A DNA stretch of 64,000 nt from a virus, in the IMG/VR virus record IMGVR_UViG_3300045988_122072, positions 64,001 through 128,000 of that record. The stretch is one strand, 5' to 3'. A program made the position numbers and the translations under genes. Below are positions 15,972-52,236 of the stretch, in pieces; the first letter of the stretch is position 1, and each line of letters begins with the position of its first letter. Under the pieces are notes generated by a model. The model was not told where the DNA came from. It saw only the letters and a program-made list of their open reading frames with translations, and made no database searches.

Positions 15972-15977
15972 CATGTA

Positions 15978-28661: not shown

Positions 28662-28675
28662 GAGGAGATAAACAC

Positions 28676-36372: not shown

Positions 36373-37473
36373 ATGAGGGTGTATATGGACAATGCTGCTA
36401 CAACTCCCATTTGTGAAGCAGCAAAGAAAGCTATTCTAGAAAATTTGGATGAGTTCTATAATCCCAACAGTTCTTATGAGACGGCTCGTACTGTCAAAGT
36501 AAAGGTAGAAGAAGCACGTGAAAAGATTGCGGAATTGATTGGGGCAGAATCCAACGAAATCTATTTCACGTCTGGTGGATCAGAAGCAAATTCATGGGTG
36601 ATGTGTAATGGATTTTCTGTTGCTTCTAATATTGAACATCATTCTATTAAATCAGATTTTAAAATTAATGTAAATTCAAATGGATTGATTGATTGTACAA
36701 AGTTTAAAACAAAGATACATGAAATGAAAGACAATGATTTTTGTATTTCACCAAGCATTGCGTCATGTATGTTTGTAAATAACGAAATAGGGGTAATTGA
36801 ACCAATTAAATACTTGGCAAAGATTGCACATGACAATAATATGTTGTTTCATTCAGACGCAGTACAGGCCTTCCCTCATATGAAGATTGATGTAAAAAAT
36901 CTTGGCGTAGATATGATGTCGTGTTCGGGGCACAAGTTTGGCTCTCCTAAGGGGATCGGCTTCCTGTATATTAAAAATGGAATTAGTGTTAATCCATTAA
37001 TTAATGGTGGCGGACAAGAAAGAGGGATCCGAGGCGGCACGACCAATGTACTGGGCATCCTTGCAATGGCAGCAGCTTTAGAATATACAATCACGCATAT
37101 GGATGAAAATAATGCTAAACTCTCTTGCTTATCAAAGAAATTAAAGGATAACTTACTTGGGGTAAAAGGAGTCACACTTAATGCAATTGATGCAAAAACT
37201 CCATGTATAGAAAGTATTTTAAACCTCAGGATTGACGATGTGAAGAGTTCTGACCTAGTCACAATGTGTGATCTATATGGCATTGAGATTAGCTCTGGGT
37301 CGGCATGTAACGAAGGAACAGCAGAACCTTCTCATGTGCTCAAAGCTATTAGGCTCACAACCGAACAGGCATTAAGCAGCATTAGAATCTCACTATCTCA
37401 TCTAAACACTGAAGAAGAAATCGACTATGTTTCTAAAATGTTACCAAAAATTATTTCCAGATTACGCCAGTAA
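36373..37473 (+). CDS. cysteine desulfurase (class V aminotransferase, NifS/IscS-like)
   Basis: PLP-lysine motif SGHKFGSPKG and active-site SSGSAC. Confidence 0.85.
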   Translation: MRVYMDNAATTPICEAAKKAILENLDEFYNPNSSYETARTVKVKVEEAREKIAELIGAESNEIYFTSGGSEANSWVMCNGFSVASNIEHHSIKSDFKINVNSNGLIDCTKFKTKIHEMKDNDFCISPSIASCMFVNNEIGVIEPIKYLAKIAHDNNMLFHSDAVQAFPHMKIDVKNLGVDMMSCSGHKFGSPKGIGFLYIKNGISVNPLINGGGQERGIRGGTTNVLGILAMAAALEYTITHMDENNAKLSCLSKKLKDNLLGVKGVTLNAIDAKTPCIESILNLRIDDVKSSDLVTMCDLYGIEISSGSACNEGTAEPSHVLKAIRLTTEQALSSIRISLSHLNTEEEIDYVSKMLPKIISRLRQ

Positions 37474-37541: not shown

Positions 37542-37712
37542 ATGACAGAGGACAATCGTATTAAGGAAGAAGCCAAGAAGCAGAGAAATTTTTGGACATG
37601 TCCACGACCAGTGACTAAGGTTCTGCGCAACGCTAAGGCATACAACAGAGCCAAGGATCGTAAGGATAAACGATTGTATGAGGAAGATGAGGGTGTTGTC
37701 GAAGAAAGATAA
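37542..37712 (+). CDS. hypothetical small basic protein (56 aa)
   Basis: Hand translation MTEDNRIKEEAKKQRNFW...; RBS GAAAGGAG 9 nt upstream. Overlaps the start of the next gene. Confidence 0.3.
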   Translation: MTEDNRIKEEAKKQRNFWTCPRPVTKVLRNAKAYNRAKDRKDKRLYEEDEGVVEER

Positions 37713-38106
37713 AAGTTATTTTAGAGCAGCTCAGGCAGTTAGTACACTATCGGATTTTAAAAGAGTAAATGTAGGAGCAGTATTGGTTTATAAACACAGA
37801 ATTATTTCTAGCTCTTGCAATTCTCAGCGGACGCATCCTTTGCAGCAAAAACTTAATAAAGAGCGTTTTGAAGAGGAAACTCCTGCAAAGCTACATGCTG
37901 AAGTTAGTTGTCTTATTCCGCTGCTTGGAAATAAAGATATTAAGTGGAGAGATTGCGAACTCTACGTATACAGAGAATATAAGCGTGGTGGGCTGGCGAT
38001 GAGTCGCCCTTGCCCCTCCTGCCAAAAATTAATTAAAGAACTTGGCATTAAGACTGTCCATTACACGACTAACGGGGGATATGCCACAGAAGAATTTGAA
38101 ATTTAA
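37678..38106 (+). CDS. dCMP deaminase (start 37678 or 37687)
   Basis: Zinc motifs HAEVS ... PCPSCQKLI. Confidence 0.8.
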   Translation: MRKMRVLSKKDKSYFRAAQAVSTLSDFKRVNVGAVLVYKHRIISSSCNSQRTHPLQQKLNKERFEEETPAKLHAEVSCLIPLLGNKDIKWRDCELYVYREYKRGGLAMSRPCPSCQKLIKELGIKTVHYTTNGGYATEEFEI

Positions 38107-38116
38107 GGAGATAGTT

Positions 38117-38275
38117 ATGAAAGAAGCATATTCTAATCTATGTAAAGCATGTTATATTCGCATTATGAAGCCTTCAAAGAAAGAAATTAAGAAAATTGTA
38201 ATGACGCCATATGAAACAGAATGTGAATGTTGCCATAAGACCAAACAGGTGGTTGATTATGCGGAGGACGATTAA
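38117..38275 (+). CDS. hypothetical Cys-rich small protein
   Basis: ATG 38117 behind RBS TAAGGAG. Confidence 0.4.
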   Translation: MKEAYSNLCKACYIRIMKPSKKEIKKIVMTPYETECECCHKTKQVVDYAEDD

Positions 38276-38508
38276 TGAAAGGTCTTCCATCTAAAGAAAT
38301 TATTATGACAGAGATCAAGTCTCTAAAAGGCGAAACATTTTATGTTACAACGACAGCTTTGCGCGACATATATTATATTTATAAAATTGCGGACAATGTT
38401 GCTACAAAACTTGGTAGTGGAAAGAGCCCAATGGTTTTGGAAGATAAGTACATTGGAGACCGAGATAAAGCATTAAAAAGATTGGAGAAAATGATAGATG
38501 GGCAATGA
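38275..38508 (+). CDS. hypothetical protein
   Basis: ORF track; RBS GGAGGA; TAATG overlap with the upstream gene. Confidence 0.45.
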   Translation: MKGLPSKEIIMTEIKSLKGETFYVTTTALRDIYYIYKIADNVATKLGSGKSPMVLEDKYIGDRDKALKRLEKMIDGQ

Positions 38509-38896
38509 ATATAAAGATTATTATGAAGACCTTTATTGTGAGTTTGAAGACAGAGTTGAGGCACTAGATTTTCTACCGGATGGCTGGGTTAATAGTTTTG
38601 TGCCAAAGCTGAAAGAAGAACTCTTTGGTATTATTGGTAGTTATACTGAAAACTTTGAAATTGTACAGGCGAAGGAAAAGTGGGGAGAACTAAGAGTGTA
38701 TTGGAGCTGGGAAGACAAGGATTATTCCGACCTAGAAGTTGCTGATATGAATGAATTATATGACAAGATTGAAAATATACTTGAAAAATACGCCACTATT
38801 AGCCGGAAAACTTGTGCGGTGTGTGGAAAGTTAGCGACGTCATATACGACTGGATGGGTACTTCCTGTTTGTGAAGAATGCAAGGAGGAAGCGTAA
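38498..38896 (+). CDS. hypothetical protein with C-terminal CxxC...CxxC
   Basis: ORF track; operon context. Confidence 0.5.
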   Translation: MGNEYKDYYEDLYCEFEDRVEALDFLPDGWVNSFVPKLKEELFGIIGSYTENFEIVQAKEKWGELRVYWSWEDKDYSDLEVADMNELYDKIENILEKYATISRKTCAVCGKLATSYTTGWVLPVCEECKEEA

Positions 38897-38935
38897 TTAT
38901 GACAGAAGAAAATAGTATAAATATGGAGGGCAAAG

Positions 38936-39757
38936 ATGACATCTGAAACTAAAATCTTAGTTTTTCAAAAGCTTTTAAATGAGTTTGAAACAGAAGAAAT
39001 TAAACTATATTGCGAAGATATGATTGAACAAATTCCAAATTACATATTCGATATGCCAAGTAGTACAACAGGTAAGCACCATAATAAAACACAATGTATG
39101 CTTCATGGGCAAATTTACCACATCATTATGTTTGGAACAATTGCAAATTATAGACTTGGACTTAAGTATAATAAAGAAAAGAAGTTCCCAGACCCAAGAA
39201 TTAGAGATGCTATTAGATGTACAGCGATTTTCCATGATGCATTGAAATGTGGCGACGGAACATCTCAATATACGGTTCATGAGCATCCTCTTCTCGCGGA
39301 AGAATGGATAAGAACAGCAAAAGTCAAACATGATATTGATTCAGAAATTAAAGAGTTTATGGCACATCTTTGCGCAGCACATTCAGGAGAATGGACAACT
39401 GCAAGACGTGGAAGTAAGACCGTTCTTCCAGAACCTCAGAATGAAGCTGAAATTTTTGTTCACGAATGTGACTATCTTGCAAGCCGTAGCGATATTGATA
39501 TGACAATTCCAGAATATTTGAATGAAATTTTCTCAGAATCTGACGTCAATGCAGTTAACAATTTTGATGTAGATAATTATGTAATGCAGTTTGGCAAATA
39601 CAAGGGACAGAAAATTATCGATGTGTATCATGAACATCCAGACTATTTGCAATGGTGTGAAGAAAACATTGGCCGCAGAGATGTTCTAGATGCTATTGCA
39701 GCTTGTAAGAAGAAAGCGGAAGAAAAGATTGAGGCCGATGACGATATTGATTTGTAA
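38936..39757 (+). CDS. HD-domain phosphohydrolase with C-terminal DUF3820-like tail
   Basis: GKHHN ... IFHDALK ... HECDYLASR (H...HD...D pattern). C-terminal FGKYKGQKIIDV...PDYLQWC. Confidence 0.6.
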   Translation: MTSETKILVFQKLLNEFETEEIKLYCEDMIEQIPNYIFDMPSSTTGKHHNKTQCMLHGQIYHIIMFGTIANYRLGLKYNKEKKFPDPRIRDAIRCTAIFHDALKCGDGTSQYTVHEHPLLAEEWIRTAKVKHDIDSEIKEFMAHLCAAHSGEWTTARRGSKTVLPEPQNEAEIFVHECDYLASRSDIDMTIPEYLNEIFSESDVNAVNNFDVDNYVMQFGKYKGQKIIDVYHEHPDYLQWCEENIGRRDVLDAIAACKKKAEEKIEADDDIDL

Positions 39758-39858
39758 TAAATGGAGCTATTAATGAGCTTACAAATACACTCAATGAGTG
39801 TAAAGTTTGTAATTGGGTAGCAAAAACATCTACATGGAATTAATAAGGAGAATAACTT

Positions 39859-40338
39859 ATGAGCACGAATTTTTATATGATTACAAAGAACAAAAAGCTG
39901 GCTCAACGGTATGCCCCGTATTCTTATGAACTTACAGATGAGCCATATTTTGGGTATGAGATTCACGTAGCCAAGACTAGTTGCGGCTGGCTTCCGGCTT
40001 GGCAGGGGCATAAAGATGGTATTAACTCTGTAGCAGAATATAAAGCTGCATATGATACTGGTGAATTTAAAATCTATGATGAATATGGAACAGAATACAA
40101 TTGGGACGCTTTTGATGATAGAGTGATTAAGTTTAATGGCGGCGTTCTTGGAGCCAAGAAGCCAGAGAAGATTGAACAAGACAAAGATTCTCGCTGGTAT
40201 GATAAAAATCTTCCAGACTATGGCCCAATTAGTCATATTCCAGAAAGCCTACAGAGCTATAAGTTTGATAATTGGTTTGCAAATGACCACTTCAAAGATC
40301 CTGATGGATTTGAATTTTCAATGAGGAGCTTTTCATAA
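39859..40338 (+). CDS. hypothetical protein
   Basis: ORF track; RBS TAAGGAG. Confidence 0.5.
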   Translation: MSTNFYMITKNKKLAQRYAPYSYELTDEPYFGYEIHVAKTSCGWLPAWQGHKDGINSVAEYKAAYDTGEFKIYDEYGTEYNWDAFDDRVIKFNGGVLGAKKPEKIEQDKDSRWYDKNLPDYGPISHIPESLQSYKFDNWFANDHFKDPDGFEFSMRSFS

Positions 40339-41444
40339 TGTATCATCTTGAACTTAGAGATTTTATTCTCTCCCATGAAAACTGGGAAGAACTACTTACA
40401 ACTGATCCTTACAACCTAAAGATTTCTCGTGATGGCGATTATATTATGTTCAAGTATAATCAAATCTCTTCTGACTTCACAATTCCCCTGGTTCGTGAAG
40501 CACGTGGAATTATTTTCAGAGAAAGTGATTGGGGATGTGTCTGCGAAAAATTTACAAAATTCGGTAATTACGGCGAGTCTTATTGCCCAGACATTGATTG
40601 GGCAACTGCTTCTGTGCAGGAAAAAGTTGATGGATCGCTTATTGGCATGTTTTATGATAATGGATGGCATATTTGTACCAATGGTACGATTGATGCTTTT
40701 AAAGCGGAGCTTAATGATGTGAAGTATCCTACTTTTGGTGCTTTGGTAGAAGATGCTATGCCAATATCATGGGGAGAATGGGAAGAAACAGCAGATCAGA
40801 AGTGTACATATATGTTTGAACTTGTGTCTCCGTATAACCGTGTCGTAATTCCATATGAAGAAACTAAGCTATATTTTCTTGGTATGCGCGATATGGAAGA
40901 TGGGAAAGAATGGAATCCAGAAGATTCTGATATGAGCTATGTTTTTGAAATGCCTAAGCGTTATCCTCTTCATTCTCTTGAAGACGTACAGAAGGCAGCA
41001 AATGCACTTCCTTGGGACGAAGAAGGTTATGTTGTATGTGACGCAAAGTTTAACAGAGTCAAGATCAAATCAAGTGCTTATATTTTAGCACATTATGCTC
41101 GTAATAATGGAGTAGTCAATACAGAACGTCTTGTTCAAATTGTGCTTGATGGAGAACAGGAAGAATTCCTTACTTATGCATCCGATTATGCTGACGAGTT
41201 GAAGCAAGCGGAAGAAGCAATGCATGAGATTGGATACAAAGCACTTGATAAGCTTAAAGAAATTTTTAACATGAAAGAGTTTGAAACTCGTGGTGCTTAT
41301 GCTCGTGAAGTTATGAAATACCCAATGTATATGAAGGATTTTCTATTCCATTGTTTTGATTCTAGAATCTTTTGGGATTATGCAAAGTCTTGGGATACAA
41401 ATAAATGGGTTAAAGCTATTAATGAATTAAATGGAGGTATTTAA
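40338..41444 (+). CDS. ATP-dependent RNA ligase (KxDG nucleotidyltransferase, Rnl1-like)
   Basis: Adenylylation motif QEKVDGSLIG; size and context fit phage RNA ligases. Confidence 0.7.
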   Translation: MYHLELRDFILSHENWEELLTTDPYNLKISRDGDYIMFKYNQISSDFTIPLVREARGIIFRESDWGCVCEKFTKFGNYGESYCPDIDWATASVQEKVDGSLIGMFYDNGWHICTNGTIDAFKAELNDVKYPTFGALVEDAMPISWGEWEETADQKCTYMFELVSPYNRVVIPYEETKLYFLGMRDMEDGKEWNPEDSDMSYVFEMPKRYPLHSLEDVQKAANALPWDEEGYVVCDAKFNRVKIKSSAYILAHYARNNGVVNTERLVQIVLDGEQEEFLTYASDYADELKQAEEAMHEIGYKALDKLKEIFNMKEFETRGAYAREVMKYPMYMKDFLFHCFDSRIFWDYAKSWDTNKWVKAINELNGGI

Positions 41445-41446
41445 AT

Positions 41447-41713
41447 ATGCAGAATAATATTGGATCAATTATTGGAATTATTGGAGTAGTGATTTTGTGG
41501 ATTCTTTCTCCTATCCTCATTTTTGGCGCAGGTTGGTTTGGTGGTTGGATTCTGATGAATATTGTTGGTGGAGCAATGGCATCTGGTCTAAACACACTAT
41601 TTGGAACGACTAGATTTGTTCCAGAATTAATTCCTGTTGTATGTGGAGCTCTAGCAGTTATTGGAAGTTTCTTTAAGGCTACTGTAAGTAGTAGCAAGGT
41701 GATGACAAAATGA
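41447..41713 (+). CDS. small membrane protein
   Basis: Gly-rich hydrophobic sequence with 2-3 TM segments; RBS GGAGGT. Confidence 0.5.
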   Translation: MQNNIGSIIGIIGVVILWILSPILIFGAGWFGGWILMNIVGGAMASGLNTLFGTTRFVPELIPVVCGALAVIGSFFKATVSSSKVMTK

Positions 41714-42519
41714 ATTATCATTCAGATCAGTGGATTATGGATAGGGTTCAAGAGCACTATAATGAGGCTCTTGAATCCTTTCCGAAGGACAGAATTGTTG
41801 GCATCTTCTATCAAGGCAGTGGCAATTATGGGCTTGATTATGAAGGTTCAGATGTTGACACCAAACTGATTGTAACACCAACATTTAAGGATATTGCAAT
41901 GAATAAGAATCCCGTTAGTACAACTCATATTCGAGCCAACGACGAACATACAGACTGGAAGGACATTAGGCTCTATATTCAGACATTTAGGAAGCAGAAC
42001 TTGAATTTTCTAGAAATTCTTTTCACAACATACAAAGTCCTAAATCCTATGTATGAGGGACAGTGGAACAGACTTATTGATGCCAGAGAAGGTATTGCAC
42101 GTTACTCTCCCATTCAAGCCATTAAGTCTATGAGAGGAATCGCTAAAGAAAAGTATTTTGCAATGGAACATCATTATCCGTCTCGTATGGAGTGGATTAA
42201 CAAATTTGGATACGATCCAAAACAACTACACCATCTATTACGTGTAGAGGAGTATATTGAAAGATATATTAATGGTGAGTCCTATGAGAAATGCCTACAA
42301 TCAAAAATGCCGGAGTTTCTCAAACAGGTAAAGACTGGAGAGTCTTTTGATTGGGGCACAGCAAGAATTGTGGCGGAAAAGTCAATTGGTCATATTGACG
42401 AAATGTGTGATAAGTTCTTAAAAAGAGAATGGAGCGTTGACGAAATTATTAATGCTTTGTTAGACAGTGTACAGTATGAAATTATGAGGATTGCAATTAA
42501 GAAAGAGATTGGTGGTTAA
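41710..42519 (+). CDS. Pol-beta-superfamily nucleotidyltransferase (RlaP-like, RNA-ligase-associated)
   Basis: GSGNYGLDYEGSDVDTK matches the GS-x(n)-DxD nucleotidyltransferase signature. Sits adjacent to the RNA ligase. Confidence 0.6.
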   Translation: MNYHSDQWIMDRVQEHYNEALESFPKDRIVGIFYQGSGNYGLDYEGSDVDTKLIVTPTFKDIAMNKNPVSTTHIRANDEHTDWKDIRLYIQTFRKQNLNFLEILFTTYKVLNPMYEGQWNRLIDAREGIARYSPIQAIKSMRGIAKEKYFAMEHHYPSRMEWINKFGYDPKQLHHLLRVEEYIERYINGESYEKCLQSKMPEFLKQVKTGESFDWGTARIVAEKSIGHIDEMCDKFLKREWSVDEIINALLDSVQYEIMRIAIKKEIGG

Positions 42520-43155
42520 ATGATTAACATTCGTCAAGACTTGATTCAAAAAGAACTTGAAAGAGGCTGCACTAATAGGCTTACGTTTCGAAAATTAAAG
42601 CCTAGTAACAGATTTATTGATAAGCTTTTTAATCATTACTATGTTGTCGAACATACAGAGCATTTTTATGATTCTGAACCAGAATATGATGATGAAGAAT
42701 TCAACATGTATATGGATTACGATTATATTAACCATAGAATAGATCCTGTTTCTGGCGCTGCTCTTTTTAATACAATTCTTAATTCTGCAGAAATAGCAAA
42801 AGAACAAGAAGACTGCCGCTTTTCAGAAGGGGAACATACGATGGAAGAACTTAAGCAAGCGTATGATAAAATTACACAACAAAGAAAAGATTATGAGTCA
42901 CGCAGAATTGAGTTTAACAATTGGATAGAACCTTATTTTAAGGGTAATTGGGGTATATCTCAGAAAGATGTTAACAAAATTGGTAGAAAACATCTTGAAG
43001 GCACGAAAAAATGTGGAGTGAGTTATAACGGTAGACTTTACATTGCAGAAGATGGAGATTCAATTTTCATTTATTACTATGGCAGAGATTTTGCACTAGT
43101 AGATTATTGGTGGATTTTCGAGAGGAAAAGAAAGAGATCGGTGATGGAAAAATGA
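42520..43155 (+). CDS. hypothetical protein
   Basis: ORF track; operon context. Confidence 0.5.
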   Translation: MINIRQDLIQKELERGCTNRLTFRKLKPSNRFIDKLFNHYYVVEHTEHFYDSEPEYDDEEFNMYMDYDYINHRIDPVSGAALFNTILNSAEIAKEQEDCRFSEGEHTMEELKQAYDKITQQRKDYESRRIEFNNWIEPYFKGNWGISQKDVNKIGRKHLEGTKKCGVSYNGRLYIAEDGDSIFIYYYGRDFALVDYWWIFERKRKRSVMEK

Positions 43156-44033
43156 ATAGACCCACTTTAATACTGCTTGTCGGGCCCAGCGGCTCCGGTA
43201 AGACTACATATGCTGAGAAATATATCTCAGAGCACACCAATACGGTTCATTTAAGCTCAGATAAGATTCGCAAAGAATTATGGGGAAACGAAGCTATTCA
43301 AGGTGACAATAATGAAATATTTGGAAGAATGCAAACTAGGGCAGTTGCTGGCTTGAATTTCGGTTATGATGTCATTTATGATTGCACGAGCATGACCAGA
43401 AAGGACAGAGCCGGAATTATTGCAGCTTGTCCTAAGTTTGCTAAGATTGAAGCACACATTATTTGGGCACCAATTGAAACTTGCATTGAGCGTGATGCCG
43501 CAAGAAAGCGTACAGTTGGTAAAGAAGTTATTGACAGAATGTTGAAGCGGTTTCAGGCTCCTTATTATGATGAGGGTATTAATGAAATTAAGGTGATTTT
43601 GCCAGACAATTTCAATCAGCAAAAGTACATAGATGATTCTATGAATGCAATGAAAATCCCGCATGACAATCCACATCATACCTTAGACATTTACAATCAT
43701 TGTGAGTCGGCATATAAGCATGCTGTAAGTAACGATATGTGTGATAATACTCTTGCGCTTGCGGCATCATTGCACGATATTGGTAAGCCATACGTCAAAG
43801 CATTTGTCAATGCAAAAGGTGAACCAAGTGATATCGCGCACTACTATCAACATCAATGTATTGGAGCTTGGATGGCGTATGGCCTTGTTGTAAATGAAAT
43901 CAACATGGATGTTGCTTGGCTTGTCAGCACACATATGGCGCCATTTTTAAACGAGAAATATTATAAAAATCTACCAACATATCTAAAGATAATGGTAGAT
44001 CAGCTACATGAGTGTGATATTCTGGCACATTAA
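43152..44033 (+). CDS. P-loop kinase fused to HD phosphohydrolase (polynucleotide kinase/phosphatase-like)
   Basis: Walker A LVGPSGSGKTT at the N-terminus; HD motif AASLHDIGKP in the C-terminal half. ATGA overlap with the upstream gene. Confidence 0.65.
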   Translation: MNRPTLILLVGPSGSGKTTYAEKYISEHTNTVHLSSDKIRKELWGNEAIQGDNNEIFGRMQTRAVAGLNFGYDVIYDCTSMTRKDRAGIIAACPKFAKIEAHIIWAPIETCIERDAARKRTVGKEVIDRMLKRFQAPYYDEGINEIKVILPDNFNQQKYIDDSMNAMKIPHDNPHHTLDIYNHCESAYKHAVSNDMCDNTLALAASLHDIGKPYVKAFVNAKGEPSDIAHYYQHQCIGAWMAYGLVVNEINMDVAWLVSTHMAPFLNEKYYKNLPTYLKIMVDQLHECDILAH

Positions 44034-44039
44034 CCAATT

Positions 44040-44066
44040 GGTACGGCATTTTCGCCGTACCTTTTG
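44040..44066 (+). terminator. rho-independent terminator
   Basis: GGTACGGC-ATTTTC-GCCGTACC followed by TTTT. Confidence 0.8.
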
Positions 44067-44080
44067 TGCATATTGACAAC

Positions 44081-44108
44081 TTGACAAATAGTAAATTCGT
44101 GTTATAAT
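44081..44108 (+). promoter_or_regulatory. sigma-A-type promoter
   Basis: TTGACA, 16-nt spacer, TATAAT. Confidence 0.65.
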
Positions 44109-44125
44109 AATGGCAGAAACAAGAA

Positions 44126-44140
44126 CAATACAAAATTAAA
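44126..44140 (+). promoter_or_regulatory. leader motif copy (CAATACAAAATTAAA)
   Basis: 18 nt after the -10 box; abuts RBS GGAGG. Confidence 0.6.
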
Positions 44141-44153
44141 GGAGGATAAATAT

Positions 44154-44735
44154 ATGAGAACTATTCGAAGAGGGGTATTTGAATCGAACTCGTCCAGCAC
44201 ACACAGCATTGCAATTAGTAAAGAAAAGGTTCCAAATGTAGCTGGTAGACATGTTTATTTCGGAGCTGGTGAATACGGTTGGGGACAAGATTGCGTAGGA
44301 GATACCGCATCATATTTGCATACGGCAATTGTTGATTCTTCTACTCCCGCACAATATGAGGAAAGAATCAATAAAATTAAAGAAATTCTTGACAGGTATG
44401 GCGTGCAATATGAATTCGAGCCAGTTGAATATAAGAAGTCTGAGTACAATCCTGATTATGAGTATATTGAGTTCGCATCTCCTCGTTATCGATGGGCAAA
44501 CGTTGACCATGCCGGTGAATGTGCAGAACTAATTAATGCACTGCTTTCGAACGAAGACCTTCTAATTAGATATCTTTTTGGCGATAGCTGCATTTACACC
44601 GGGAATGATAATTCTGATGATGAAGACAGCATGCGCTATTGCGCAGAGGCAACTATTTGGGATGATAATTATGGAACCATTCCAAACCCAAATCACGACG
44701 CAGAACATTATGATTACTTTTTTAAGGGGAATTAA
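44154..44735 (+). CDS. hypothetical protein, N-terminal FESNSSSTHS motif (paralog of next gene)
   Basis: MRTIRRGVFESNSSSTHSIAI against MRQIRKNVFETNSSSTHSLTM in the next ORF. Confidence 0.5.
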   Translation: MRTIRRGVFESNSSSTHSIAISKEKVPNVAGRHVYFGAGEYGWGQDCVGDTASYLHTAIVDSSTPAQYEERINKIKEILDRYGVQYEFEPVEYKKSEYNPDYEYIEFASPRYRWANVDHAGECAELINALLSNEDLLIRYLFGDSCIYTGNDNSDDEDSMRYCAEATIWDDNYGTIPNPNHDAEHYDYFFKGN

Positions 44736-44737
44736 TT

Positions 44738-45148
44738 ATGAGACAGATTAGAAAGAATGTATTTGAAACAAACAGTTCTTCTACTCATTCACTAACAATG
44801 TGTACAAAAGAAGAATATGATAACTGGAAAAACGGAAAACTTCTATTTGATAGTTACTATAAAAAGTTTGTATCTTCACTAGAATTAACAAAAGCAGATT
44901 TTGAGAAAGCTGAAAATAATTATGAATCTCATAAACAGAAATATCAGAAGAATTGGAATCAGCTAACTAAAGAAGAGCAAGAAAAATATACGCTTGGGTA
45001 TATTAAAGAGAATAAGTCAATGGATGAAATTGTAACATATTCAGAGTGGCTAGACAGAAATGATTATCTAGACAAATTCTATAAAGAATATACTACTAAA
45101 AATAACGAAAAAATTGTAGCTTTCGGCGCTTATGGATATGATGGTTAA
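44738..45148 (+). CDS. hypothetical protein, N-terminal FETNSSSTHS motif (paralog of previous gene)
   Basis: Shares the roughly 20-aa N-terminus with 44154..44735; RBS AAGGGGA. Confidence 0.5.
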   Translation: MRQIRKNVFETNSSSTHSLTMCTKEEYDNWKNGKLLFDSYYKKFVSSLELTKADFEKAENNYESHKQKYQKNWNQLTKEEQEKYTLGYIKENKSMDEIVTYSEWLDRNDYLDKFYKEYTTKNNEKIVAFGAYGYDG

Positions 45149-45158
45149 GGAGGAAAAT

Positions 45159-46058
45159 ATGAATCTTATTGGCAAGTATCAGAATGGGAATTATATCGTA
45201 AGTTTGTACGATGACGGAACTAAGATTCGTGAGAATGATTTGGATAATCTGACTCCTGCTTTTGCAGAGAACTGTGATGTTAAAATTACAGATAAGTGTG
45301 ATGGAGGCTGTGCCTTCTGCTATGAAGGCTGCACACCTAATGGCAAGCATGGTGATATTCTAAAACCTAAATTCCTAGATACCCTTCATCCATATACTGA
45401 GCTGGCTATCAATGGCAACGATCTTTCTCATCCAGATTTGGTTCCTTTCATGTACAAGATGAAAGATAAGAATATCATTCTCAATATGACAGTGAATCAG
45501 ATTCATTTTGAAAGATACTTTGATACAATTAAAGACTGGATTGACAAAAAGCTAATTTATGGACTTGGAATCTCTCTGCGTAAGCCGACATATGAATTCA
45601 TTGATATGGTTAAGCAGATTCCAAACGCTGTTATTCATGTAATTAATGGCATTGTTTCTATGCCAGATCTTGATACTCTTGCTGGAAATGGACTCAAAAT
45701 TCTTATTCTTGGATATAAGAATCTAAGACGTGGTGAAAGTTATTATGAGAGTCACAATGAAAGTGTACTTGGATTACAGGAAGATTTAAACCGCTACCTC
45801 TTCCCTGAAATTATCGGGCACAGTTGGTTTGATGTTGTGAGTTTTGATAATCTAGCAATCGAACAGCTTCATGTTAAAGAATATATGTCCAAGGAAGAAT
45901 GGAATAGTTTCTTTATGGGCGAAGATGGCGATTATACTTTCTATATTGATATGGTCGAAGGAATGTTTGCAAAAGATTCCTTGTCTATGGAACGTTATCC
46001 TCTTATGGATAATATTGATGACATGTTTAACTTTTTGAGAAATAAGAAGGAGAAGTAA
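45159..46058 (+). CDS. radical-SAM-like protein
   Basis: CxxxCxxC cluster in ITDKCDGGCAFCYEG; ATG 45159 behind RBS TAAGGAGG. Confidence 0.5.
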   Translation: MNLIGKYQNGNYIVSLYDDGTKIRENDLDNLTPAFAENCDVKITDKCDGGCAFCYEGCTPNGKHGDILKPKFLDTLHPYTELAINGNDLSHPDLVPFMYKMKDKNIILNMTVNQIHFERYFDTIKDWIDKKLIYGLGISLRKPTYEFIDMVKQIPNAVIHVINGIVSMPDLDTLAGNGLKILILGYKNLRRGESYYESHNESVLGLQEDLNRYLFPEIIGHSWFDVVSFDNLAIEQLHVKEYMSKEEWNSFFMGEDGDYTFYIDMVEGMFAKDSLSMERYPLMDNIDDMFNFLRNKKEK

Positions 46059-46060
46059 TT

Positions 46061-46894
46061 ATGGATAAGACATCTCTTGGTGATAGAATGAAAAACAACT
46101 ATGAAAATGTTAATAGATTTTATTTAACAAGAAGAATACCAGTTATTATTAGAATGGATATGAAGGCCGGTCATACTTTTACTAGAGGAATGAAGAAGCC
46201 GTTTGATGATATTTTCGTAAAGACAATGCAAGAGACTATGAAGTATCTCTGTGAGAACATTCAGGGTTGTGTTCTTGGTTATACTCAGAGTGACGAAATT
46301 TCTCTTGTACTGACAGACTATGCAGAGTTGACAACAGATGCATGGTTTGGAAACAATCTACAGAAGATGTGTAGCGTATCTGCGAGTATGGCAACATTGG
46401 CATTTAATAAAGCATTTAACGACAATATTGTAAGGTATATTGACAGTCATTTTGATACCGATTGTGATGTTACGAGGGATTTAGCTGAATATACAAAAAT
46501 TCTCATTAATGCAAGAAACAAAGGAGCAATGTTCGATTCTCGTGTCTTTACAATTCCTAAAGAGGAAGTTTGTAACTATATACTGTGGAGACAGCAGGAC
46601 GCCACTCGCAATTCTATCCAGTCTGTAGGTCAAGCAAACTTTAGCGATAAAGAATTGTATAAGAAGTCTACTAAAGACATTCAAGACATGCTTATGACTC
46701 AAAAAGGTATCAACTGGAATGACTATGCAACGACTCTAAAGCGTGGTAGCTGTTGTATTAAAGTCGATGATAGTCTTACTGAGTATGACGAAGTGGGAAA
46801 TATTCGTGGTTATACTCAAAGAAGTAAGTGGGTAATCGATAATAAAATTCCTATCTTTACTCAGGACAGAAACTATGTTGAAAAGCTAATTTGA
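46061..46894 (+). CDS. Thg1-like protein (tRNA-His guanylyltransferase family 3'-5' polymerase)
   Basis: RMDMKAGHTFTRGMKKPFD and GYTQSDEISLVL match Thg1/TLP signature regions. Confidence 0.75.
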   Translation: MDKTSLGDRMKNNYENVNRFYLTRRIPVIIRMDMKAGHTFTRGMKKPFDDIFVKTMQETMKYLCENIQGCVLGYTQSDEISLVLTDYAELTTDAWFGNNLQKMCSVSASMATLAFNKAFNDNIVRYIDSHFDTDCDVTRDLAEYTKILINARNKGAMFDSRVFTIPKEEVCNYILWRQQDATRNSIQSVGQANFSDKELYKKSTKDIQDMLMTQKGINWNDYATTLKRGSCCIKVDDSLTEYDEVGNIRGYTQRSKWVIDNKIPIFTQDRNYVEKLI

Positions 46895-46903
46895 GGTAAG
46901 GTT

Positions 46904-47179
46904 ATGACTACTATTTATAAGTGTGACACCTGTGGACGAGAATTTAAGAACTTGAAAGAATGCGAGATGTGTGAAGCGTCCCACATGACTCCAATAGATC
47001 GCATTAAGTATATGATTCTGCTAGATAATCGAAAGATGGTTTGCGATTATTGCGATAAGAGTTATTATGTATATGGCTGCGAAGTGGATTGTGACTTTAA
47101 AGAATGCGGGTATGCAAACATGTATAGGGACTTTGTTCCGACGAAGCCTTTGCATGATAAGAGTATAAGCGGAGTATAA
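46904..47179 (+). CDS. zinc-ribbon protein
   Basis: CDTCG...CEMCE...CDYCD. Confidence 0.5.
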   Translation: MTTIYKCDTCGREFKNLKECEMCEASHMTPIDRIKYMILLDNRKMVCDYCDKSYYVYGCEVDCDFKECGYANMYRDFVPTKPLHDKSISGV

Positions 47180-47194
47180 AAGGAGTTTATATAT

Positions 47195-47566
47195 ATGAAC
47201 AAAACTGAAATTTTAAATGGTAAAATTACTAGTACTAAACTTGGCGAAGAGCATGGCTGTCTAACTGCAGATCTACTTGTCGAAGGAGAAGGATGGGGTT
47301 GTGCATTTGGTGGCTATTGCCTCGACCATTGGTTCGCAGAAACTGGAGAGCACCATTCCTCTGATGGCTATGGTGCAATTATTGAGCTTATGAAGACGCT
47401 TGAAGTGGGATCATGGGAAGCGCTTAAGGGCAAATATGTACGTGTTGAAATCGAGGGATGGGGTGGAAAAATTCTTAGAATTGGGCATCTTATGAAAGAC
47501 AAATGGTTTAGCTTTAAGGATTATTTTGAACAGGTAAAGAAGATGCAAGAGGTTAAGGAGGGCTAA
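47195..47566 (+). CDS. hypothetical protein
   Basis: ORF track; RBS AAAGGAG. Confidence 0.5.
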   Translation: MNKTEILNGKITSTKLGEEHGCLTADLLVEGEGWGCAFGGYCLDHWFAETGEHHSSDGYGAIIELMKTLEVGSWEALKGKYVRVEIEGWGGKILRIGHLMKDKWFSFKDYFEQVKKMQEVKEG

Positions 47567-47568
47567 AT

Positions 47569-47889
47569 ATGATTAGCAAGGAAACATTTGTGAATACTAT
47601 GAACAAGCTGCGGGATCTTGATAGGAAAATGGACGCAGTAGATAAAGCGTTTAAGGCATTAGACTCAGACTTCTGTAGTTTTTATGTTACGGGTATTTTT
47701 GATACAACATTTGATCTTCTTAAAGAAGCAATGAATGACAAGGACAACTGGATTGAATATTTTGTCTATGAAAGAGATTGGCTTAGAGATTTTAAACTTG
47801 GTGACGTCGAAGTAAATGGTGAGCCAGTGAAGATTTATTCGTGGGGAGATGTCTATGATTTTATCGTAACGGAGGATAAGCATGTTTAA
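47569..47889 (+). CDS. hypothetical protein
   Basis: ORF track; RBS TAAGGAGGG. Confidence 0.5.
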   Translation: MISKETFVNTMNKLRDLDRKMDAVDKAFKALDSDFCSFYVTGIFDTTFDLLKEAMNDKDNWIEYFVYERDWLRDFKLGDVEVNGEPVKIYSWGDVYDFIVTEDKHV

Positions 47890-48373
47890 GAAATTGTGCT
47901 GGGAAATTTTATTCAGATATAAGAATGCACGACAAAAGAGATTAATTCGAGTATACAAGAAAAAGTATCCAGATTATATCGATGATGAATACAATTGTGG
48001 TAATTTGAAATTTATCTGGGGCATTAAATCTTATGATGACATGTCTTCATCTGACGCAAACATGTGGACAATGAATGATATTGATATTTATTACGATAGA
48101 GATACTAAACAATATAGTTTAGGGGTTGAAACCATATATATGTTTGACGATACACAAGCTGAATGCGCATATTATAATAGCTTACTAGAATCGTTCACTA
48201 AATATATGAAGGAAAATGGACTGGACACAGAACGAAATTATTGCACGTTTTGTTCTGGCCTAGATCTAAGTCTTAAGGCTGATTCTATTGAGGAGCTTTA
48301 TGCCAGATTTAAAATTGCCGTAACTGGATTGTGTGCGGTGTGCGAGGAGAGAGGTAATTATGAATATCATTAA
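47882..48373 (+). CDS. hypothetical protein
   Basis: ORF track; RBS GGAGGA. Confidence 0.5.
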   Translation: MFKKLCWEILFRYKNARQKRLIRVYKKKYPDYIDDEYNCGNLKFIWGIKSYDDMSSSDANMWTMNDIDIYYDRDTKQYSLGVETIYMFDDTQAECAYYNSLLESFTKYMKENGLDTERNYCTFCSGLDLSLKADSIEELYARFKIAVTGLCAVCEERGNYEYH

Positions 48374-48836
48374 CAATTACTCCACAACCATTGTGTCTAT
48401 TTTTCAAGATGTTATTAATAATTACGAAAGAAACCTTGAGATTATCAAACAAGCAGAAGAAGAACTTATGGATCTAGAACATGAAATTGAATTGTCCGCC
48501 CCAAAAGATATGTATAAAGGATACTTGGCATATAAAGAAGTTAGAGATGTACGTATTAAAAGGCGCAAAGCCAAAGAAGAAAATGAATTACTTAAAGATA
48601 TGTATGATTATCTCAAAAGTCAGCAAGGACAGTCATTCAAGAATAAGATCCAATCCATTCAGGGTGCGTCAGTAAAACTACGGGATGCACAAGAACATAG
48701 AACCTATATTCCAAGACAGAGAAGTGATTTGACGATTACTAATCATACAAGCGTTGCGCACAAGCCATTTGAGGAAATGTTAAGTGATTTTAATAAGATT
48801 AAGGTGAGCACTCAGAATGGTAAGTTAAGAAAATAA
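48360..48836 (+). CDS. hypothetical coiled-coil protein
   Basis: ATG 48360 behind RBS GAGAGG. Confidence 0.5.
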   Translation: MNIINNYSTTIVSIFQDVINNYERNLEIIKQAEEELMDLEHEIELSAPKDMYKGYLAYKEVRDVRIKRRKAKEENELLKDMYDYLKSQQGQSFKNKIQSIQGASVKLRDAQEHRTYIPRQRSDLTITNHTSVAHKPFEEMLSDFNKIKVSTQNGKLRK

Positions 48837-48849
48837 GTGGTGGAGAGGA

Positions 48850-49041
48850 ATGGGTATTTATTATTTTACAAGACCAGATCAGATGGCTGGGCATAAATTT
48901 ACTGATGATGTTGCAGTCGTATGGGCAATGAGTAAGAAATCTGCAATCAAGAAGTTCTCTGTGCTATATGCAGATGTGCAGGAGAATGAAGTCGATAAGG
49001 TTGGTTTCTGGACTCGTGCCAGAGTTTTAACAGATTATTAA
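48850..49041 (+). CDS. hypothetical small protein
   Basis: ORF track; RBS GGAGAGG. Confidence 0.45.
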   Translation: MGIYYFTRPDQMAGHKFTDDVAVVWAMSKKSAIKKFSVLYADVQENEVDKVGFWTRARVLTDY

Positions 49042-49053
49042 CGGAGTGATTTA

Positions 49054-50958
49054 ATGAATAAGATTGATAGAGTTCGAGAATTAACAGAATTGCTTAATAA
49101 GGCAGCGGACGCATATTACAATACCGGCGATACAATTATGGAGGATCATGAGTTTGATACACTCCTAGAAGAGCTTTGTTCTTTAGAGCAAGAAACTGGA
49201 TTTGTTATGGCAACTTCGCCTACGCATAAAGTTGGATACGAAGTAAAATCAGAACTACAGAAGGTAACACATAATCATCCTATGTTGTCTTTGGCAAAGA
49301 CTAAAGATTGGAATGAGTTCATTATGCATTTTGGGAGCAAAGATGTCATAGGAATGTTAAAGATGGATGGATTAACTTGCAGCTTAAGATATATTGACGG
49401 TGAGCTAGTATCAGCAGAAACTCGTGGCAACGGAGAAATTGGTGAAGACATTTTTCACAACATCAAAACCGTAAAGACAGTTCCACAGAAGATTCCATAT
49501 AAGGATGAACTCATTGTTGATGGTGAGATTATTTGTACATATGAAGACTTTGAGCCATTCTCTACTGAATATAAAAATCCAAGAAACTTTGCTTCAGGAA
49601 GTATTAGACTGCTTGATTCAAACGAGTGTGCAAAAAGACCTCTAACTTTTGTGGCTTGGAATGTAATCAAGGGCTTTGATAATGAAAATAGCTTCTTGCG
49701 TAAGCTAGTACTTATTGACGAGTTAGGTTTTACTGTTGTTCCGTGGACTAGTTCTTTTGATTGGGATGCGAAGGAATTTTTGGTCAATAAGGCTAAGAAG
49801 CTTGGATACCCAATTGATGGTTTGGTTGGACGCTTTGGTGATATTAAGTATGGGGAGAGCCTTGGAGCAACATCACATCATAGTAATGCAGCTTACGCAT
49901 TTAAGTTCGGTGATGAAACTTATGAAACGGTACTAAGAGATGTTGAGTGGAATACGACAAGAACCGGAATTATTGCTCCAGTAGCTGTTTTCGATGAGGT
50001 TGACCTAGACGGAGCCTTGACTACAAGAGCTACACTTCACAACCTTTCCATTATTGAGCAACTTGAGCTTGGTATTGGAGATACTATTACGGTGTACCGT
50101 AGCAATATGGTAATTCCAAAAATTGATGACAACCTAACCCGTAGCAATACATTAAAGATCCCTACTACCTGCCCATGTTGTGCCTATCCTACAGAGGTCA
50201 AGTATACAGACAATAGTAAGGTGCTAATGTGTACTAATCCAGATTGTCCAGCAAGAAACCTTGCTAAATTTGAGCACTTTGTTTCTAAAAAAGCAATGGA
50301 TATACAAGGACTTAGCTCCGCAACTCTAGAGACGTTAATTTCGCATGGTTTTATACACAAGTACAAAGATATCTACCATCTAAGCGACCACAGGAGTGAA
50401 CTTATTAGGCTTGATGGATACGGCGCAAAGTCTATTGATAATCTATTGGAATCCATTGAAAAATCAAGGAACGTGAAGCTAGAAAACTTTATTACAGCAT
50501 TATCAATTCCTAATATTGGGTTGTCTGCGGCAAAGGCTATCAGTAAGAAATTTAATGGTGATCATTATGAATTTATACAGGCGTTGTCCAGCGATTATGA
50601 CTTTAGTCAGATTGATGATTTCGGAGAGATTACGAATAAATCATTGCACGATTGGTGGAAGAGTAAAGATCCAATGGCAGAGCTATTGCCTATGGAAATG
50701 AATTTTATTGTTGAGGAGAAGAGTGCCGATAATTCGTTAAGCGGGCTTAAATTCTGTATAACTGGAACTTTTAGTCAATCACGAGACGAGCTTAAAGCAA
50801 TACTTGAATCTAAAGGAGCAAAGTTTATTAGTTCTGTAAGTAAAAATCTCGATGTGCTTTTTGTTGGAGATAAAGCTGGTAGCAAACTTGCTAAAGCACA
50901 ACAACTTGGAATTAAAATTGCAGACGAAAACGAACTAATGAAGATATTGGGCGATTAA
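49054..50958 (+). CDS. ligA: NAD-dependent DNA ligase
   Basis: N-terminal AADAYYNTGDTIMEDHEFD (Ia domain), KxDG site LKMDGLT, Cys4 finger CPCC...CTNPDC, C-terminal BRCT-like region. Confidence 0.9.
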   Translation: MNKIDRVRELTELLNKAADAYYNTGDTIMEDHEFDTLLEELCSLEQETGFVMATSPTHKVGYEVKSELQKVTHNHPMLSLAKTKDWNEFIMHFGSKDVIGMLKMDGLTCSLRYIDGELVSAETRGNGEIGEDIFHNIKTVKTVPQKIPYKDELIVDGEIICTYEDFEPFSTEYKNPRNFASGSIRLLDSNECAKRPLTFVAWNVIKGFDNENSFLRKLVLIDELGFTVVPWTSSFDWDAKEFLVNKAKKLGYPIDGLVGRFGDIKYGESLGATSHHSNAAYAFKFGDETYETVLRDVEWNTTRTGIIAPVAVFDEVDLDGALTTRATLHNLSIIEQLELGIGDTITVYRSNMVIPKIDDNLTRSNTLKIPTTCPCCAYPTEVKYTDNSKVLMCTNPDCPARNLAKFEHFVSKKAMDIQGLSSATLETLISHGFIHKYKDIYHLSDHRSELIRLDGYGAKSIDNLLESIEKSRNVKLENFITALSIPNIGLSAAKAISKKFNGDHYEFIQALSSDYDFSQIDDFGEITNKSLHDWWKSKDPMAELLPMEMNFIVEEKSADNSLSGLKFCITGTFSQSRDELKAILESKGAKFISSVSKNLDVLFVGDKAGSKLAKAQQLGIKIADENELMKILGD

Positions 50959-51058: not shown

Positions 51059-51126
51059 GAATAAAATATCATACGAATCATACGAAACGGTAAGAAGCAA
51101 AATTTTCAGAAAGGAGGTAATAGTTG

Positions 51127-52236
51127 ATGAAAATTTTAAGAGCATATAAATACCGGATATATCCAAATCAAGAGCAAGAAATTTTAATTCAAAAAACATT
51201 TGGATGTGTAAGGTTTGTATATAATCAGGCACTTTCATATCGTCAAGAATTATATAAAACCAAAAGAAAAAATATCAGTAAATTTGCTTGTGAACAGTAT
51301 ATGATTCAAGTTCTAAAACAACAATATGAATGGTTGAGAGAAGTTGATAAATTTGCATTATCAAGTGCAATTTGGAATATGGATTATGCATATCAAAAAT
51401 TTTTCAAAGAACATGCAGGCTTCCCGAAGTTTAAAAGCAAACATAATCACAGAAAATCATATACAACAAAAATAACAAATAACAATATTGCAGTTTCTTT
51501 TGAGAACAATAAAATTAAGCTTCCAAAGTTAAGTTGGGTTAAAGCAAGGATTCATCGTAAATTTGTTGGCAAAATTAAACAAGCAACAGTTTCACAAAAT
51601 CCATCAGGAAAATATTTTGTTTCTGTGTTAGTAGAAGAAGAACATCGTCCATTATTAACAACCGGTTCTACTATTGGACTTGATCTTGGAATTAAAGATT
51701 TGGTTATTACCTCCAATGGTAAAAAATATGCAAATCCAAAAATCTTAGAGAAGTATAAAAAGAAACTTTCTAAAGAACAACGAAGAATGACTCATAAACA
51801 AAAAAGTTCAAGTAATTATAACAAACAACGCATTAAAGTTGCTCGTATTTACGAAAAAATCCATAATATCAGATTAGATTATCTACACAAAATATCTAAT
51901 GAAATTATTAGCGAAAACCAAGTAATAATTTCTGAAGATTTATCCATATCTAATATGATGAAGAACCATAAACTAGCAAAATCAATTAGTGATTGTGGCT
52001 GGTACGAGCTAACGAGGCAATTAGAATATAAGGCAAAATGGAATGAAAGACAATATATCAAGATTGGAAGATTCATTCCATCGAGTCAAATTTGCAATTG
52101 TTGTGGATACAGGTATCCAGAAACAAAAGATTTATCGGTTAGAGCATGGACATGTCCTAGTTGTGGAACAAAACACGACCGAGATATTAATGCGGCTAAA
52201 AATATTTTAGACGAAGGATTAAAATTTGTGGTGTGA
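51127..52236 (+). CDS. tnpB: TnpB (IS200/IS605 OrfB, RuvC-like RNA-guided nuclease family)
   Basis: N-terminal [16 protein letters not shown]; GLDLGIKD RuvC-I; zinc finger CNCCGY...[18 protein letters not shown]. Confidence 0.85.

Follow-up and report, generated by a model that had tools for sequence, protein, structure and literature searches.

A two-unit phage island pairing a predicted RNA break-repair cassette with a Thg1-like polymerase gene

Why does a phage keep an RNA ligase, a nucleotidyltransferase, a kinase fused to an HD phosphoesterase, a radical S-adenosylmethionine (SAM)-like protein and a Thg1-like polymerase side by side? The question is raised by positions 38936–46894 of a 64,000-nucleotide stretch of viral DNA (positions 64,001 to 128,000 of IMG/VR record IMGVR_UViG_3300045988_122072, here called the window), for which a first-pass annotation, made from the letters alone, had proposed one expanded RNA healing, sealing and editing gene set. 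All the genes it named in this region are present where it placed them, all on the + strand, within a run of tightly packed + strand genes that extends from 37.5 to 48.5 kb. The region is composed of two neighbouring transcription units in a hypervariable accessory island. We consider it probable, with moderate confidence, that the first (unit A) is an RNA break-repair cassette and that the second (unit B) supplies 5′-end repair through the Thg1-like protein, the two together keeping tRNAs usable.

A ligase slot with constant partners

The ligase gene (Rnl1, 40338–41444) encodes an ATP-dependent RNA ligase of the T4 Rnl1 family, as judged by matches to T4 Rnl1 in the PDB (2c5u, E 1e-16), to phrog_562 (9e-48) and to the NCBIfam equivalog TIGR02308 (4e-18). 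The last of these aligns residues 35–362 with profile positions 31–358 of 373, at 65.5 bits against an equivalog cut-off of 242. Family membership also follows from the nucleotidyltransferase motifs, which read EKVDGSL, EGYVV and KIKS for motifs I, IV and V, against TKEDGSL, EGYVA and KIKS in T4. Sealing of RNA 3′-OH and 5′-phosphate ends is the predicted activity.

The RlaP gene (41710–42519) encodes a divergent Pol-beta nucleotidyltransferase of the RlaP type (PF10127), with a match to phrog_388 (1e-17). The score of the window protein against PF10127 (14.3 bits, E 0.034) falls below the cut-off of 23 and is backed by relatives, as are several of our domain assignments: 24 of 25 aligned RlaP relatives match the family (best E 1.7e-6), relatives at 72–78% identity carry a precomputed PF10127 match, and the Pol-beta signature GS...DxD (G36 S37, D48 and D50) is invariant in 25 sequences. 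A PDB sequence search with this protein gave nothing usable.

The last gene of the cassette (kinase-HD, 43149–44033) joins an N-terminal polynucleotide kinase (PNK)-type P-loop kinase to a C-terminal HD phosphoesterase. The kinase part matches AAA_33 (7e-25), Pnkp TIGR04075 (4e-14) and Pnkp1 in the PDB (4xrp, 2e-7), and its Walker A (GPSGSGKT), SSD and RKDR motifs place it in the PNK clade. An HD domain stands where a fused phosphatase of the T4 DxDxT or the Clostridium thermocellum metallophosphoesterase type might have been found; it scores 20.3 bits (7e-4) against the Pfam HD cut-off of 22 and best resembles the HD region of CCA enzymes (TIGR02692, 3e-9). By its domains the protein would be Pnkp-like in its working while a member of neither Pnkp family, and we propose it as a candidate bifunctional end-healing enzyme. 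It occurs as two alleles, only 28–31% identical to each other, which share the kinase-then-HD architecture. Cultured Bacillus phages, for example pW2 and Tsamsa, encode full-length homologues (29–33% identity, 98% of the length aligned) directly downstream of Rnl1, and there the two neighbours are annotated as ‘RNA ligase’ and ‘polynucleotide kinase’.

To follow these genes across related phages, loci were fetched from IMG/VR around relatives of five genes, all window proteins were scored against them, and overlapping loci were merged into 69 distinct contig groups. Kinase-HD was found in all 15 groups with Rnl1 and in 34 of the 39 with RlaP, and the Thg1-like gene was likewise present in 34 of these 39. 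An RNA ligase lies close to RlaP in 38/39 groups, directly upstream in the loci inspected; in the single remaining group the end of the locus cuts the position off. The type of ligase in this slot varies. Rnl1 is found in 11 of the RlaP groups, a 387-aa ligase composed of a PHA02142 OB domain and a PF09414 RNA_ligase domain in 9–11, and a 492-aa PF09414-like ligase in 16–18. The functional core across the 69 groups is ligase, RlaP and kinase-HD. The exchange of RNA ligase types in one slot is strong comparative evidence that the slot needs RNA sealing, and that RlaP and kinase-HD work with the ligase. Beyond this set, the Rnl1 and kinase-HD pair recurs in more distant phages (L016–L019, 35–38% identity), and the RlaP, Thg1-like and Ro-like genes (the last described below) co-occur in other large phage contigs (L074–L087, 37–60% identity).

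The island is also a recombination hot spot. Kinase-HD, RlaP and two further genes, HD1 and mem88, switch between alleles of 28–64% identity while the flanking genes stay 85–100% identical. This highly mosaic character, the homing endonucleases inserted in some relatives and the nucleotide-metabolism genes close by would suit a cargo region whose members share no function and serve separately in DNA end processing, nucleotide metabolism or, as for T4 gp63, tail-fibre attachment. We regard such an assortment as very improbable. The order of ligase, RlaP and kinase-HD survives the swapping of alleles, the ligase is replaced by other RNA ligases only, and the same gene pairs recur in distant phages; a cluster that is both conserved and modular across 69 related contig groups did not arise by chance.

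The remaining genes in and beside unit A are less readily placed. HD1 (38936–39757) is a putative HD-domain phosphohydrolase with an ExoX-like C-terminal domain (E 4e-9). H..HD..D residues are visible in its sequence, and the Pfam HD score of the window allele (21.8 bits, cut-off 22) is exceeded by that of a sister allele (L052:6174-6746, 30.2 bits); sister phages carry two allelic forms, at ~35% and ~97% identity. A PDB sequence search found no relative, and the stand-alone HD1 is not assigned to the repair pathway. The 159-aa protein u159 (39859–40338), encoded directly upstream of the ligase slot, has no match in Pfam, PHROG, NCBIfam or the PDB; it is present in 16 of the 69 groups, beside Rnl1 or the 492-aa ligase. 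Between ligase and RlaP, where related loci often have a small membrane open reading frame (ORF), lies mem88 (41447–41713), a predicted 88-aa membrane protein recognised by its hydrophobic sequence and a match to phrog_30257. All 21 groups with mem88 also have the RlaP-like nucleotidyltransferase. The 211-aa u211 (42520–43155), between RlaP and kinase-HD, gave no family match in Pfam, PHROG or NCBIfam and nothing usable in a PDB search. It is found in 15 of the 69 groups, 13 of them with kinase-HD.

Homing endonuclease genes in the islands of sister genomes include a LAGLIDADG gene, which either separates the radical-SAM gene from the Thg1-like gene or immediately precedes the latter, and an HNH gene upstream of HD1 (coordinates in sister genomes: L003 15737–16549, L007 7848–8609, L009 18165–19121).

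The window itself is phage DNA, with genes for Pol III alpha, a DnaB-like helicase, a RecJ-like DHH protein, an NAD-dependent DNA ligase, ribonucleotide reductase, integrases and a tail-fibre protein. The exact Rnl1 protein sequence occurs on metagenomic contigs of ~160 kb from many samples, in 61 blocks of the assembly collection, and the lineage is abundant in gut metagenomes. For Pol III alpha the closest record, at 45% identity, comes from an uncultured phage of human faeces; Geobacillus virus E3 follows at 40%, and Bacillus phages, pW2 among them, at 38%. We assign the source to a ~160-kb siphovirus-like gut phage, of which E3 and the pW2-type Bacillus phages would, by Pol III alpha, be distant relatives. 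When the 8-kb stretch was compared by megablast with 50,697 phage records, there was no match; relatives exist at the protein level only.

A unit boundary and a radical-SAM module set apart

Directly after kinase-HD lies an intrinsic-terminator-like hairpin (44040–44061, + strand) with an 8-bp stem, 6 of them GC, and a T-rich tail. It is the only + strand terminator-like site in a scan of positions 38000–49200, and its stem is exactly conserved in 40 related loci, irrespective of ligase type or kinase-HD allele. It is followed, ahead of the next gene, by a sigma-70-type promoter (44081–44108, + strand) in which TTGACA and a TG-extended TATAAT are separated by 16 nt, the only match at 12/12 positions in the 11-kb scan. 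The hairpin is predicted to close unit A (u159, Rnl1, mem88, RlaP, u211 and kinase-HD), and the promoter to drive a unit B of parA, parB, the radical-SAM gene, the Thg1-like gene and genes further downstream.

The first two genes of unit B had been described as paralogous unknowns, which holds for their N-termini only. ParA (44154–44735; 193 aa) belongs to an uncharacterised family and has R..VFE[ST]NSSSxHS as its N-terminal motif; the 136-aa ParB (44738–45148) has this motif alone in common with it. Similarity is confined to the first ~39 residues (46% identity, E 1e-8), and the remainder of the two proteins is not similar. The AlphaFold model of ParA is confident overall (predicted local distance difference test, pLDDT, 89), with most of the motif lying in a low-confidence segment at residues 1–12. 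The model found no fold match in the PDB and, in BFVD, one uncharacterised family member only. ParA has 2,737 representative relatives; the 150 best-scoring are all short, stand-alone proteins that match nearly always from the extreme N-terminus, and none of these 150 is a fusion.

The third gene (45132–46058) encodes a radical-SAM-like Fe-S protein, whose true start is probably the ATG at 45159, as inferred from gene calls on sister contigs. Its CX3CX2C motif (C56, C60, C63) is invariant in 29 sequences. The protein matches phrog_16999, ‘Fe-S oxidoreductase’ (3e-38); there was no match in Pfam or NCBIfam, and a PDB sequence search yielded nothing usable. With an AlphaFold model of pLDDT 75, the top Foldseek matches were the radical-SAM enzymes DesII, EpeE, GDGT-MAS and AprD4, all weak (E 9e-4, template modelling score ~0.4).

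These genes form a module of their own. Proteins of the ParA/ParB family, one to four in number and otherwise unrelated, accompany the radical-SAM gene in 17/17 loci examined, and the radical-SAM gene is present in all 26 groups with parA and all 28 with parB, while its association with RNA-repair genes is partial (11–21 of 31 groups). In the Prevotella Lak megaphages the radical-SAM gene is followed by genes for four different proteins, all beginning MK.Q.R..VFETNSSSTH, and in Lak-B7 no RNA-repair gene was found within 20 kb. The Microcystis phage Ma-LMM01 carries the module as gp130 and gp128, and there none was found within 5 kb. The shared motif may be the target of the radical-SAM enzyme, or a shared active site. 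Outside the window the module is recorded at 20013–22995 of L159 and at 4085–5891 of L142. The neighbouring Ma-LMM01 gp131, annotated as ‘histidyl tRNA synthetase’, was tested as a possible mislabelled Thg1 and proved not to be one.

How much of the island, then, belongs to one pathway? That all eleven genes, including HD1, the radical-SAM gene and its motif partners, act together in extended RNA healing, sealing and editing, as originally proposed, has some points in its favour. Behind one strong promoter, parA, parB, the radical-SAM and the Thg1-like gene follow each other closely, at junctions that overlap or measure 2 nt; a Thg1-like, RlaP or kinase-HD gene lies within 10 kb in 19–21 of the 31 radical-SAM groups; and in Rhodothermus phage RM378 a distant radical-SAM homologue adjoins a poly(A)-polymerase-like gene. 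Nonetheless, we think so inclusive a pathway quite unlikely. The motif proteins are the only constant partners of the radical-SAM gene, the module occurs without RNA-repair genes in the searched flanks of Lak-B7 and Ma-LMM01, between it and the ligase cassette stands a terminator that is conserved, and neither profile nor fold searches detected an RNA-binding or RNA-modifying domain in it. Given its constant motif partners and its occurrence apart from RNA-repair genes, we do not count the module as RNA repair; it is an independent and widespread module, and terminator and promoter set it off from the ligase cassette.

The combination of P-loop kinase, pyridoxal phosphate enzyme, radical-SAM protein and deaminase was also considered as a thymidine-hypermodification system. 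This was rejected for kinase-HD, because its pairing with RNA ligases and RlaP is fixed; the rejection does not extend to the radical-SAM module.

The Thg1-like protein and a proposed route of tRNA repair

The last gene of the region (46061–46894) encodes a Thg1-like protein (TLP) of the bacterial type, a member of the templated 3′-5′ nucleotidyltransferase family recognised in both Pfam and PDB searches. It scores 90.8 bits (9e-26) against the Pfam Thg1 cut-off of 29.2, and the catalytic residues D33 and S77-D78-E79 are invariant in the alignment. Similarity is far greater to BtTLP (PDB 4kgk, E 3e-65) than to the human, yeast and Candida Thg1 proteins (~1e-4), which assigns the window protein to the predicted templated-repair clade of bacterial TLPs, not to the G-1-adding eukaryotic Thg1. 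An insert of ~30 aa after the FNKAF segment is common to all the aligned metagenomic phage TLPs; Fusobacterium phage FNU3 has a shorter one. An annotated Thg1-like gene is present in 163 phage records. Near those of FNU3 and Bacillus phage PK-3 no RNA ligase is annotated, so the tight clustering is specific to the source lineage. The gene is absent from some otherwise near-identical genomes, such as L008, where a 96-aa ORF (15742–16032) occupies its expected place.

Taken together, Rnl1, RlaP, kinase-HD and the Thg1-like protein make a coherent set for healing, nucleotide restoration and sealing whose linkage is conserved. To this extent the tRNA-repair proposal stands; the radical-SAM protein, the supposed paralogues and HD1 drop out of it. 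We infer tRNA substrates, the order of steps and a counter-defence role as follows. The HD domain of kinase-HD would open and remove the 2′,3′-cyclic phosphate, or remove the 3′-phosphate, left by metal-independent tRNA nucleases, to give a 3′-OH, and its kinase domain would place a phosphate on the 5′-OH. RlaP is expected, by analogy with Pseudomonas enzymes that add 1–2 nt to the 3′-OH of broken tRNAs and restore aminoacylation after loss of the wobble base (PMC12776372), to add 1–2 nt ahead of sealing. Rnl1 would then seal the break in the anticodon loop. From unit B, the Thg1-like protein would rebuild 5′-truncated acceptor stems by templated 3′-5′ addition on a 5′-phosphate, in keeping with structural work on TLPs that describes templated nucleotide addition to the 5′ end of truncated tRNAs (PMC4820378, PMC3701042). 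The likely overall role would be to keep host and phage tRNAs usable under tRNA-cleaving host defences. The phage encodes Asp-GUC, Asn-GUU, Ile-UAU, Gln-UUG, Gly-UCC and Lys-UUU tRNAs, several of which belong to isoacceptor classes cut by known anticodon nucleases; this overlap fits a role in counter-defence.

Several considerations count against this proposal. The window RlaP and the HD domains of both HD1 and kinase-HD score under their Pfam cut-offs. Because the loci were retrieved with peptide patterns derived from the window, the counts come mostly from one broad lineage and reflect shared ancestry. The absence of the Thg1-like gene from the near-identical L008 indicates that it is dispensable. 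Finally, because T4 Rnl1 has a further task in tail-fibre attachment, homology of the ligase is not enough by itself to settle its role.

Against the background of known systems, the cassette is a clear but largely expected example, which extends the current picture of phage RNA repair and does not change it. The claim that it goes beyond the T4 paradigm is not new. T4 itself has an RlaP-family protein, NrdC.11, in work that published RlaP biochemistry in 2025 (PMC12776372); a neighbourhood of Thg1, PNK and RNA ligase was described in 2010 (PMC2904730); and a survey of jumbo phages (Iyer et al. 2021) lists tRNAs; Rnl1, Rnl2 and RtcB ligases; PNK; phosphoesterases; RlaP, which mirrors the ligases; Thg1, which is sporadic; and a ROT/TROVE protein that has a tRNA-like partner (PMC7824862).

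The comparison with each system nevertheless brings out differences. Like the T4 pathway that repairs tRNA-Lys with Pnkp and Rnl1 after cleavage by PrrC, the cassette has an Rnl1-family ligase with the same nucleotidyltransferase motifs and, by prediction, a 5′-kinase of polynucleotide kinase type with 3′-healing activity on the same polypeptide. The T4 phosphatase domain is of the DxDxT (HAD) type, whereas here it is an HD domain; the window ligase is only ~25–30% identical to T4 Rnl1, the genes are adjacent in one cassette, and a Thg1-like enzyme is added. As a 3′-healing module an HD domain is also known from Runella HD-Pnk, where the domain order is the reverse of the kinase-then-HD order seen here. 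The jumbo-phage toolkits share the same parts list. In the present phage these parts are concentrated in one island, and a swap of three ligases in one slot is documented within a single lineage; at ~160 kb, the genome is below the usual jumbo-phage threshold of ~200 kb.

RlaP also adjoins an RNA ligase gene in the RtcB-RlaP-RtcA operons of Pseudomonas (PfRlaP and PaRlaP; PMC12776372), but RtcB is a 3′-phosphate ligase, whereas the window ligase is of the Rnl1 type (5′-phosphate/3′-OH), and the window RlaP is very divergent. With BtTLP and the Thg1-PNK-ligase neighbourhoods (PMC2904730) the island shares the catalytic carboxylates and the proximity of a PNK-type kinase and an RNA ligase; it differs in that the TLP is phage-encoded, has the ~30-residue insertion and is predicted to be co-transcribed with an unrelated radical-SAM module. 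Rnl1 and kinase-HD pairs are found in Bacillus phages (Tsamsa, pW2, PK-3 and others), and PK-3 and FADO have Thg1-like and nucleotidyltransferase genes elsewhere in their genomes, but these genes are dispersed and annotated piecemeal, and in pW2 and Tsamsa no RlaP lies between ligase and kinase. The kinase domain is nearest to Pnkp1 and Clostridium thermocellum Pnkp, known from Pnkp/Hen1 systems and Pnkp1-Rnl-Hen1 complexes (4xrp). Unlike those, the cassette has a phosphatase that is not a metallophosphoesterase, and among the annotated genes of the island a Hen1 methyltransferase was not found.

What this analysis adds is the ligase swap in one slot within a single lineage, the kinase-then-HD healing fusion as a constant partner, the conserved unit boundary and the setting apart of the radical-SAM module. 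To our knowledge, there has been no test in infection of any phage Thg1-like protein, phage kinase-HD healing enzyme or phage RlaP. The cassette is compact and naturally permuted: its ligase comes in three types and its kinase-HD in two alleles, and the Thg1-like gene is present in some genomes and absent from others. Such variation could help to match each part with the host tRNA-targeting defences that it counters.

Unconventional RNAs and neighbouring genes

The earlier proposal had further suggested that the repair enzymes process interrupted tRNAs of the phage itself. The RNAs in question are two tRNA-like molecules of 124 and 118 nt (30341–30464 and 30473–30590, + strand), detected as over-long tRNA matches in Rfam, with inserts of 59 and 57 nt in or beside the anticodon arm. 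They lie upstream of a gene (30797–32386, + strand) that had been called Ro60-like. The gene is there, but it matches Pfam DUF2828 and DUF7788 and not TROVE itself; no Pfam TROVE match and no PDB match to Ro60 or its bacterial orthologue Rsr was found, and a literature search on DUF2828/TROVE returned nothing relevant. In 15/15 sister loci at least one tRNA-like RNA lies 200–450 nt upstream of the Ro-like gene, and most have both; one is also found in L042, whose Ro-like protein shares only 41% identity. Compensatory changes show that the acceptor arms and T arms covary. The inserts vary between versions and always keep ACAGCAA (the pair in the window share ACAGCAA(G/A/T)TT), and a further exact copy of the motif lies in the leader of the Ro-like gene. 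No CCA is encoded, and a divergent copy does not conserve the second RNA's anticodon-like hairpin.

These RNAs are best read as partner RNAs of the Ro-like protein, likely in the manner of Y RNAs, and not as split tRNAs that need healing and sealing; there is no evidence of splicing. Membership of YrlA was rejected, since the match reaches 26 bits against a cut-off of 69 and spans the junction of the two RNAs. The ‘intron’ models given by ARAGORN looked forced, lacking a canonical U33 or relying on a weak A/T-rich stem, and were set aside.

A separate case for RNA maturation arises at a 93-nt tRNA with anticodon UAU and a long variable arm (33285–33377, + strand). Five ordinary tRNAs of the phage have an encoded CCA; tRNA(UAU) has none. 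Its discriminator base abuts a match to an HDV-like (hepatitis delta virus-like) ribozyme (RF02682; 33378–33434, + strand) at 33.5 bits (E 0.0015), under the Rfam gathering score of 44. If cut in the HDV manner, the tRNA would end in a cyclic phosphate, the removal of which would need an enzyme like kinase-HD. The cassette might, then, process the phage's own transcripts instead of countering a defence: kinase-HD would remove the 2′,3′-cyclic phosphate from ribozyme-released tRNA(UAU), RlaP or a CCA enzyme would add nucleotides, and the tRNA-like RNAs would perhaps be handled likewise. The position of the element directly 3′ of a CCA-less tRNA, its conservation in L045 and the resemblance of the kinase-HD HD domain to that of CCA enzymes speak for such in-house maturation, as does the reported enrichment of DRB0094-family RNA ligases (140-fold) and CCA enzymes (250-fold) in phages with theta ribozymes (PMC10879173). 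We nevertheless judge it unlikely. The ribozyme match is sub-threshold, has no covariation support and is replaced by other sequence in L049; trimming of a 3′ end needs neither a ligase nor a 5′-kinase; and the cassette is kept in most related loci whatever their tRNA content. Repair of broken tRNAs remains the reading that we favour.

A bolder combination can be drawn up, in which the island, besides shielding tRNAs, matures unconventional RNAs (a ribozyme-released, CCA-less tRNA healed by kinase-HD and extended by RlaP or a CCA enzyme, and the ACAGCAA tRNA-like RNAs for the Ro-like protein) and the radical-SAM enzyme acts on VFE[ST]NSSSxHS, the conserved and disordered N-terminal motif of two to four otherwise unrelated proteins. 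We offer this as a long shot; were it true, the radical-SAM enzyme and its motif proteins would be a new phage system of protein or RNA modification, co-expressed with the Thg1-like polymerase.

Some further features were recorded in the window and in related loci. Near the cassette lie genes for a cysteine-desulfurase-like class V aminotransferase (36373–37473, + strand; recurring in 35/69 contig groups) and a protein of the cytidine/dCMP-deaminase family (37678–38106, + strand; 36/69), which could serve in tRNA thiolation or editing, in Fe-S supply to the radical-SAM enzyme, or in nucleotide metabolism. The metallophosphoesterase gene noted at 596 is borne out (596–1348). Between the Ro-like gene and the tRNA array there is a group I intron-like match (32464–32687, + strand; 41.9 bits, gathering score 50, E 2e-8). 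The tRNA array of L077 contains a partial match to OLE RNA (RF01071; 1604–1691, + strand; model positions 437–594, 53.4 bits where the gathering score is 50), and the sequence of this contig is found again in a phage contig of 402 kb. A TnpB/IS605 OrfB-type gene (51124–52236, + strand) with OrfB_IS605 and Cas12f1-like TNB domains lies downstream of the NAD-dependent DNA ligase. The large subunit of ribonucleotide reductase is encoded in two ORFs (54802–55629 and 56087–57526, + strand) separated by a gap of ~460 nt, for which an intron, an intein or a homing element could be the cause. Lastly, a homologue of adenylosuccinate synthetase (28655–29824, + strand; partial match to Pfam Adenylsucc_synt, 1.4e-29) might be PurZ, in which case 2-aminoadenine could be present in the genome; no DatZ or MazZ partner was identified, and L124 and L126 have a copy with 50% identity placed between their radical-SAM and Thg1-like genes.

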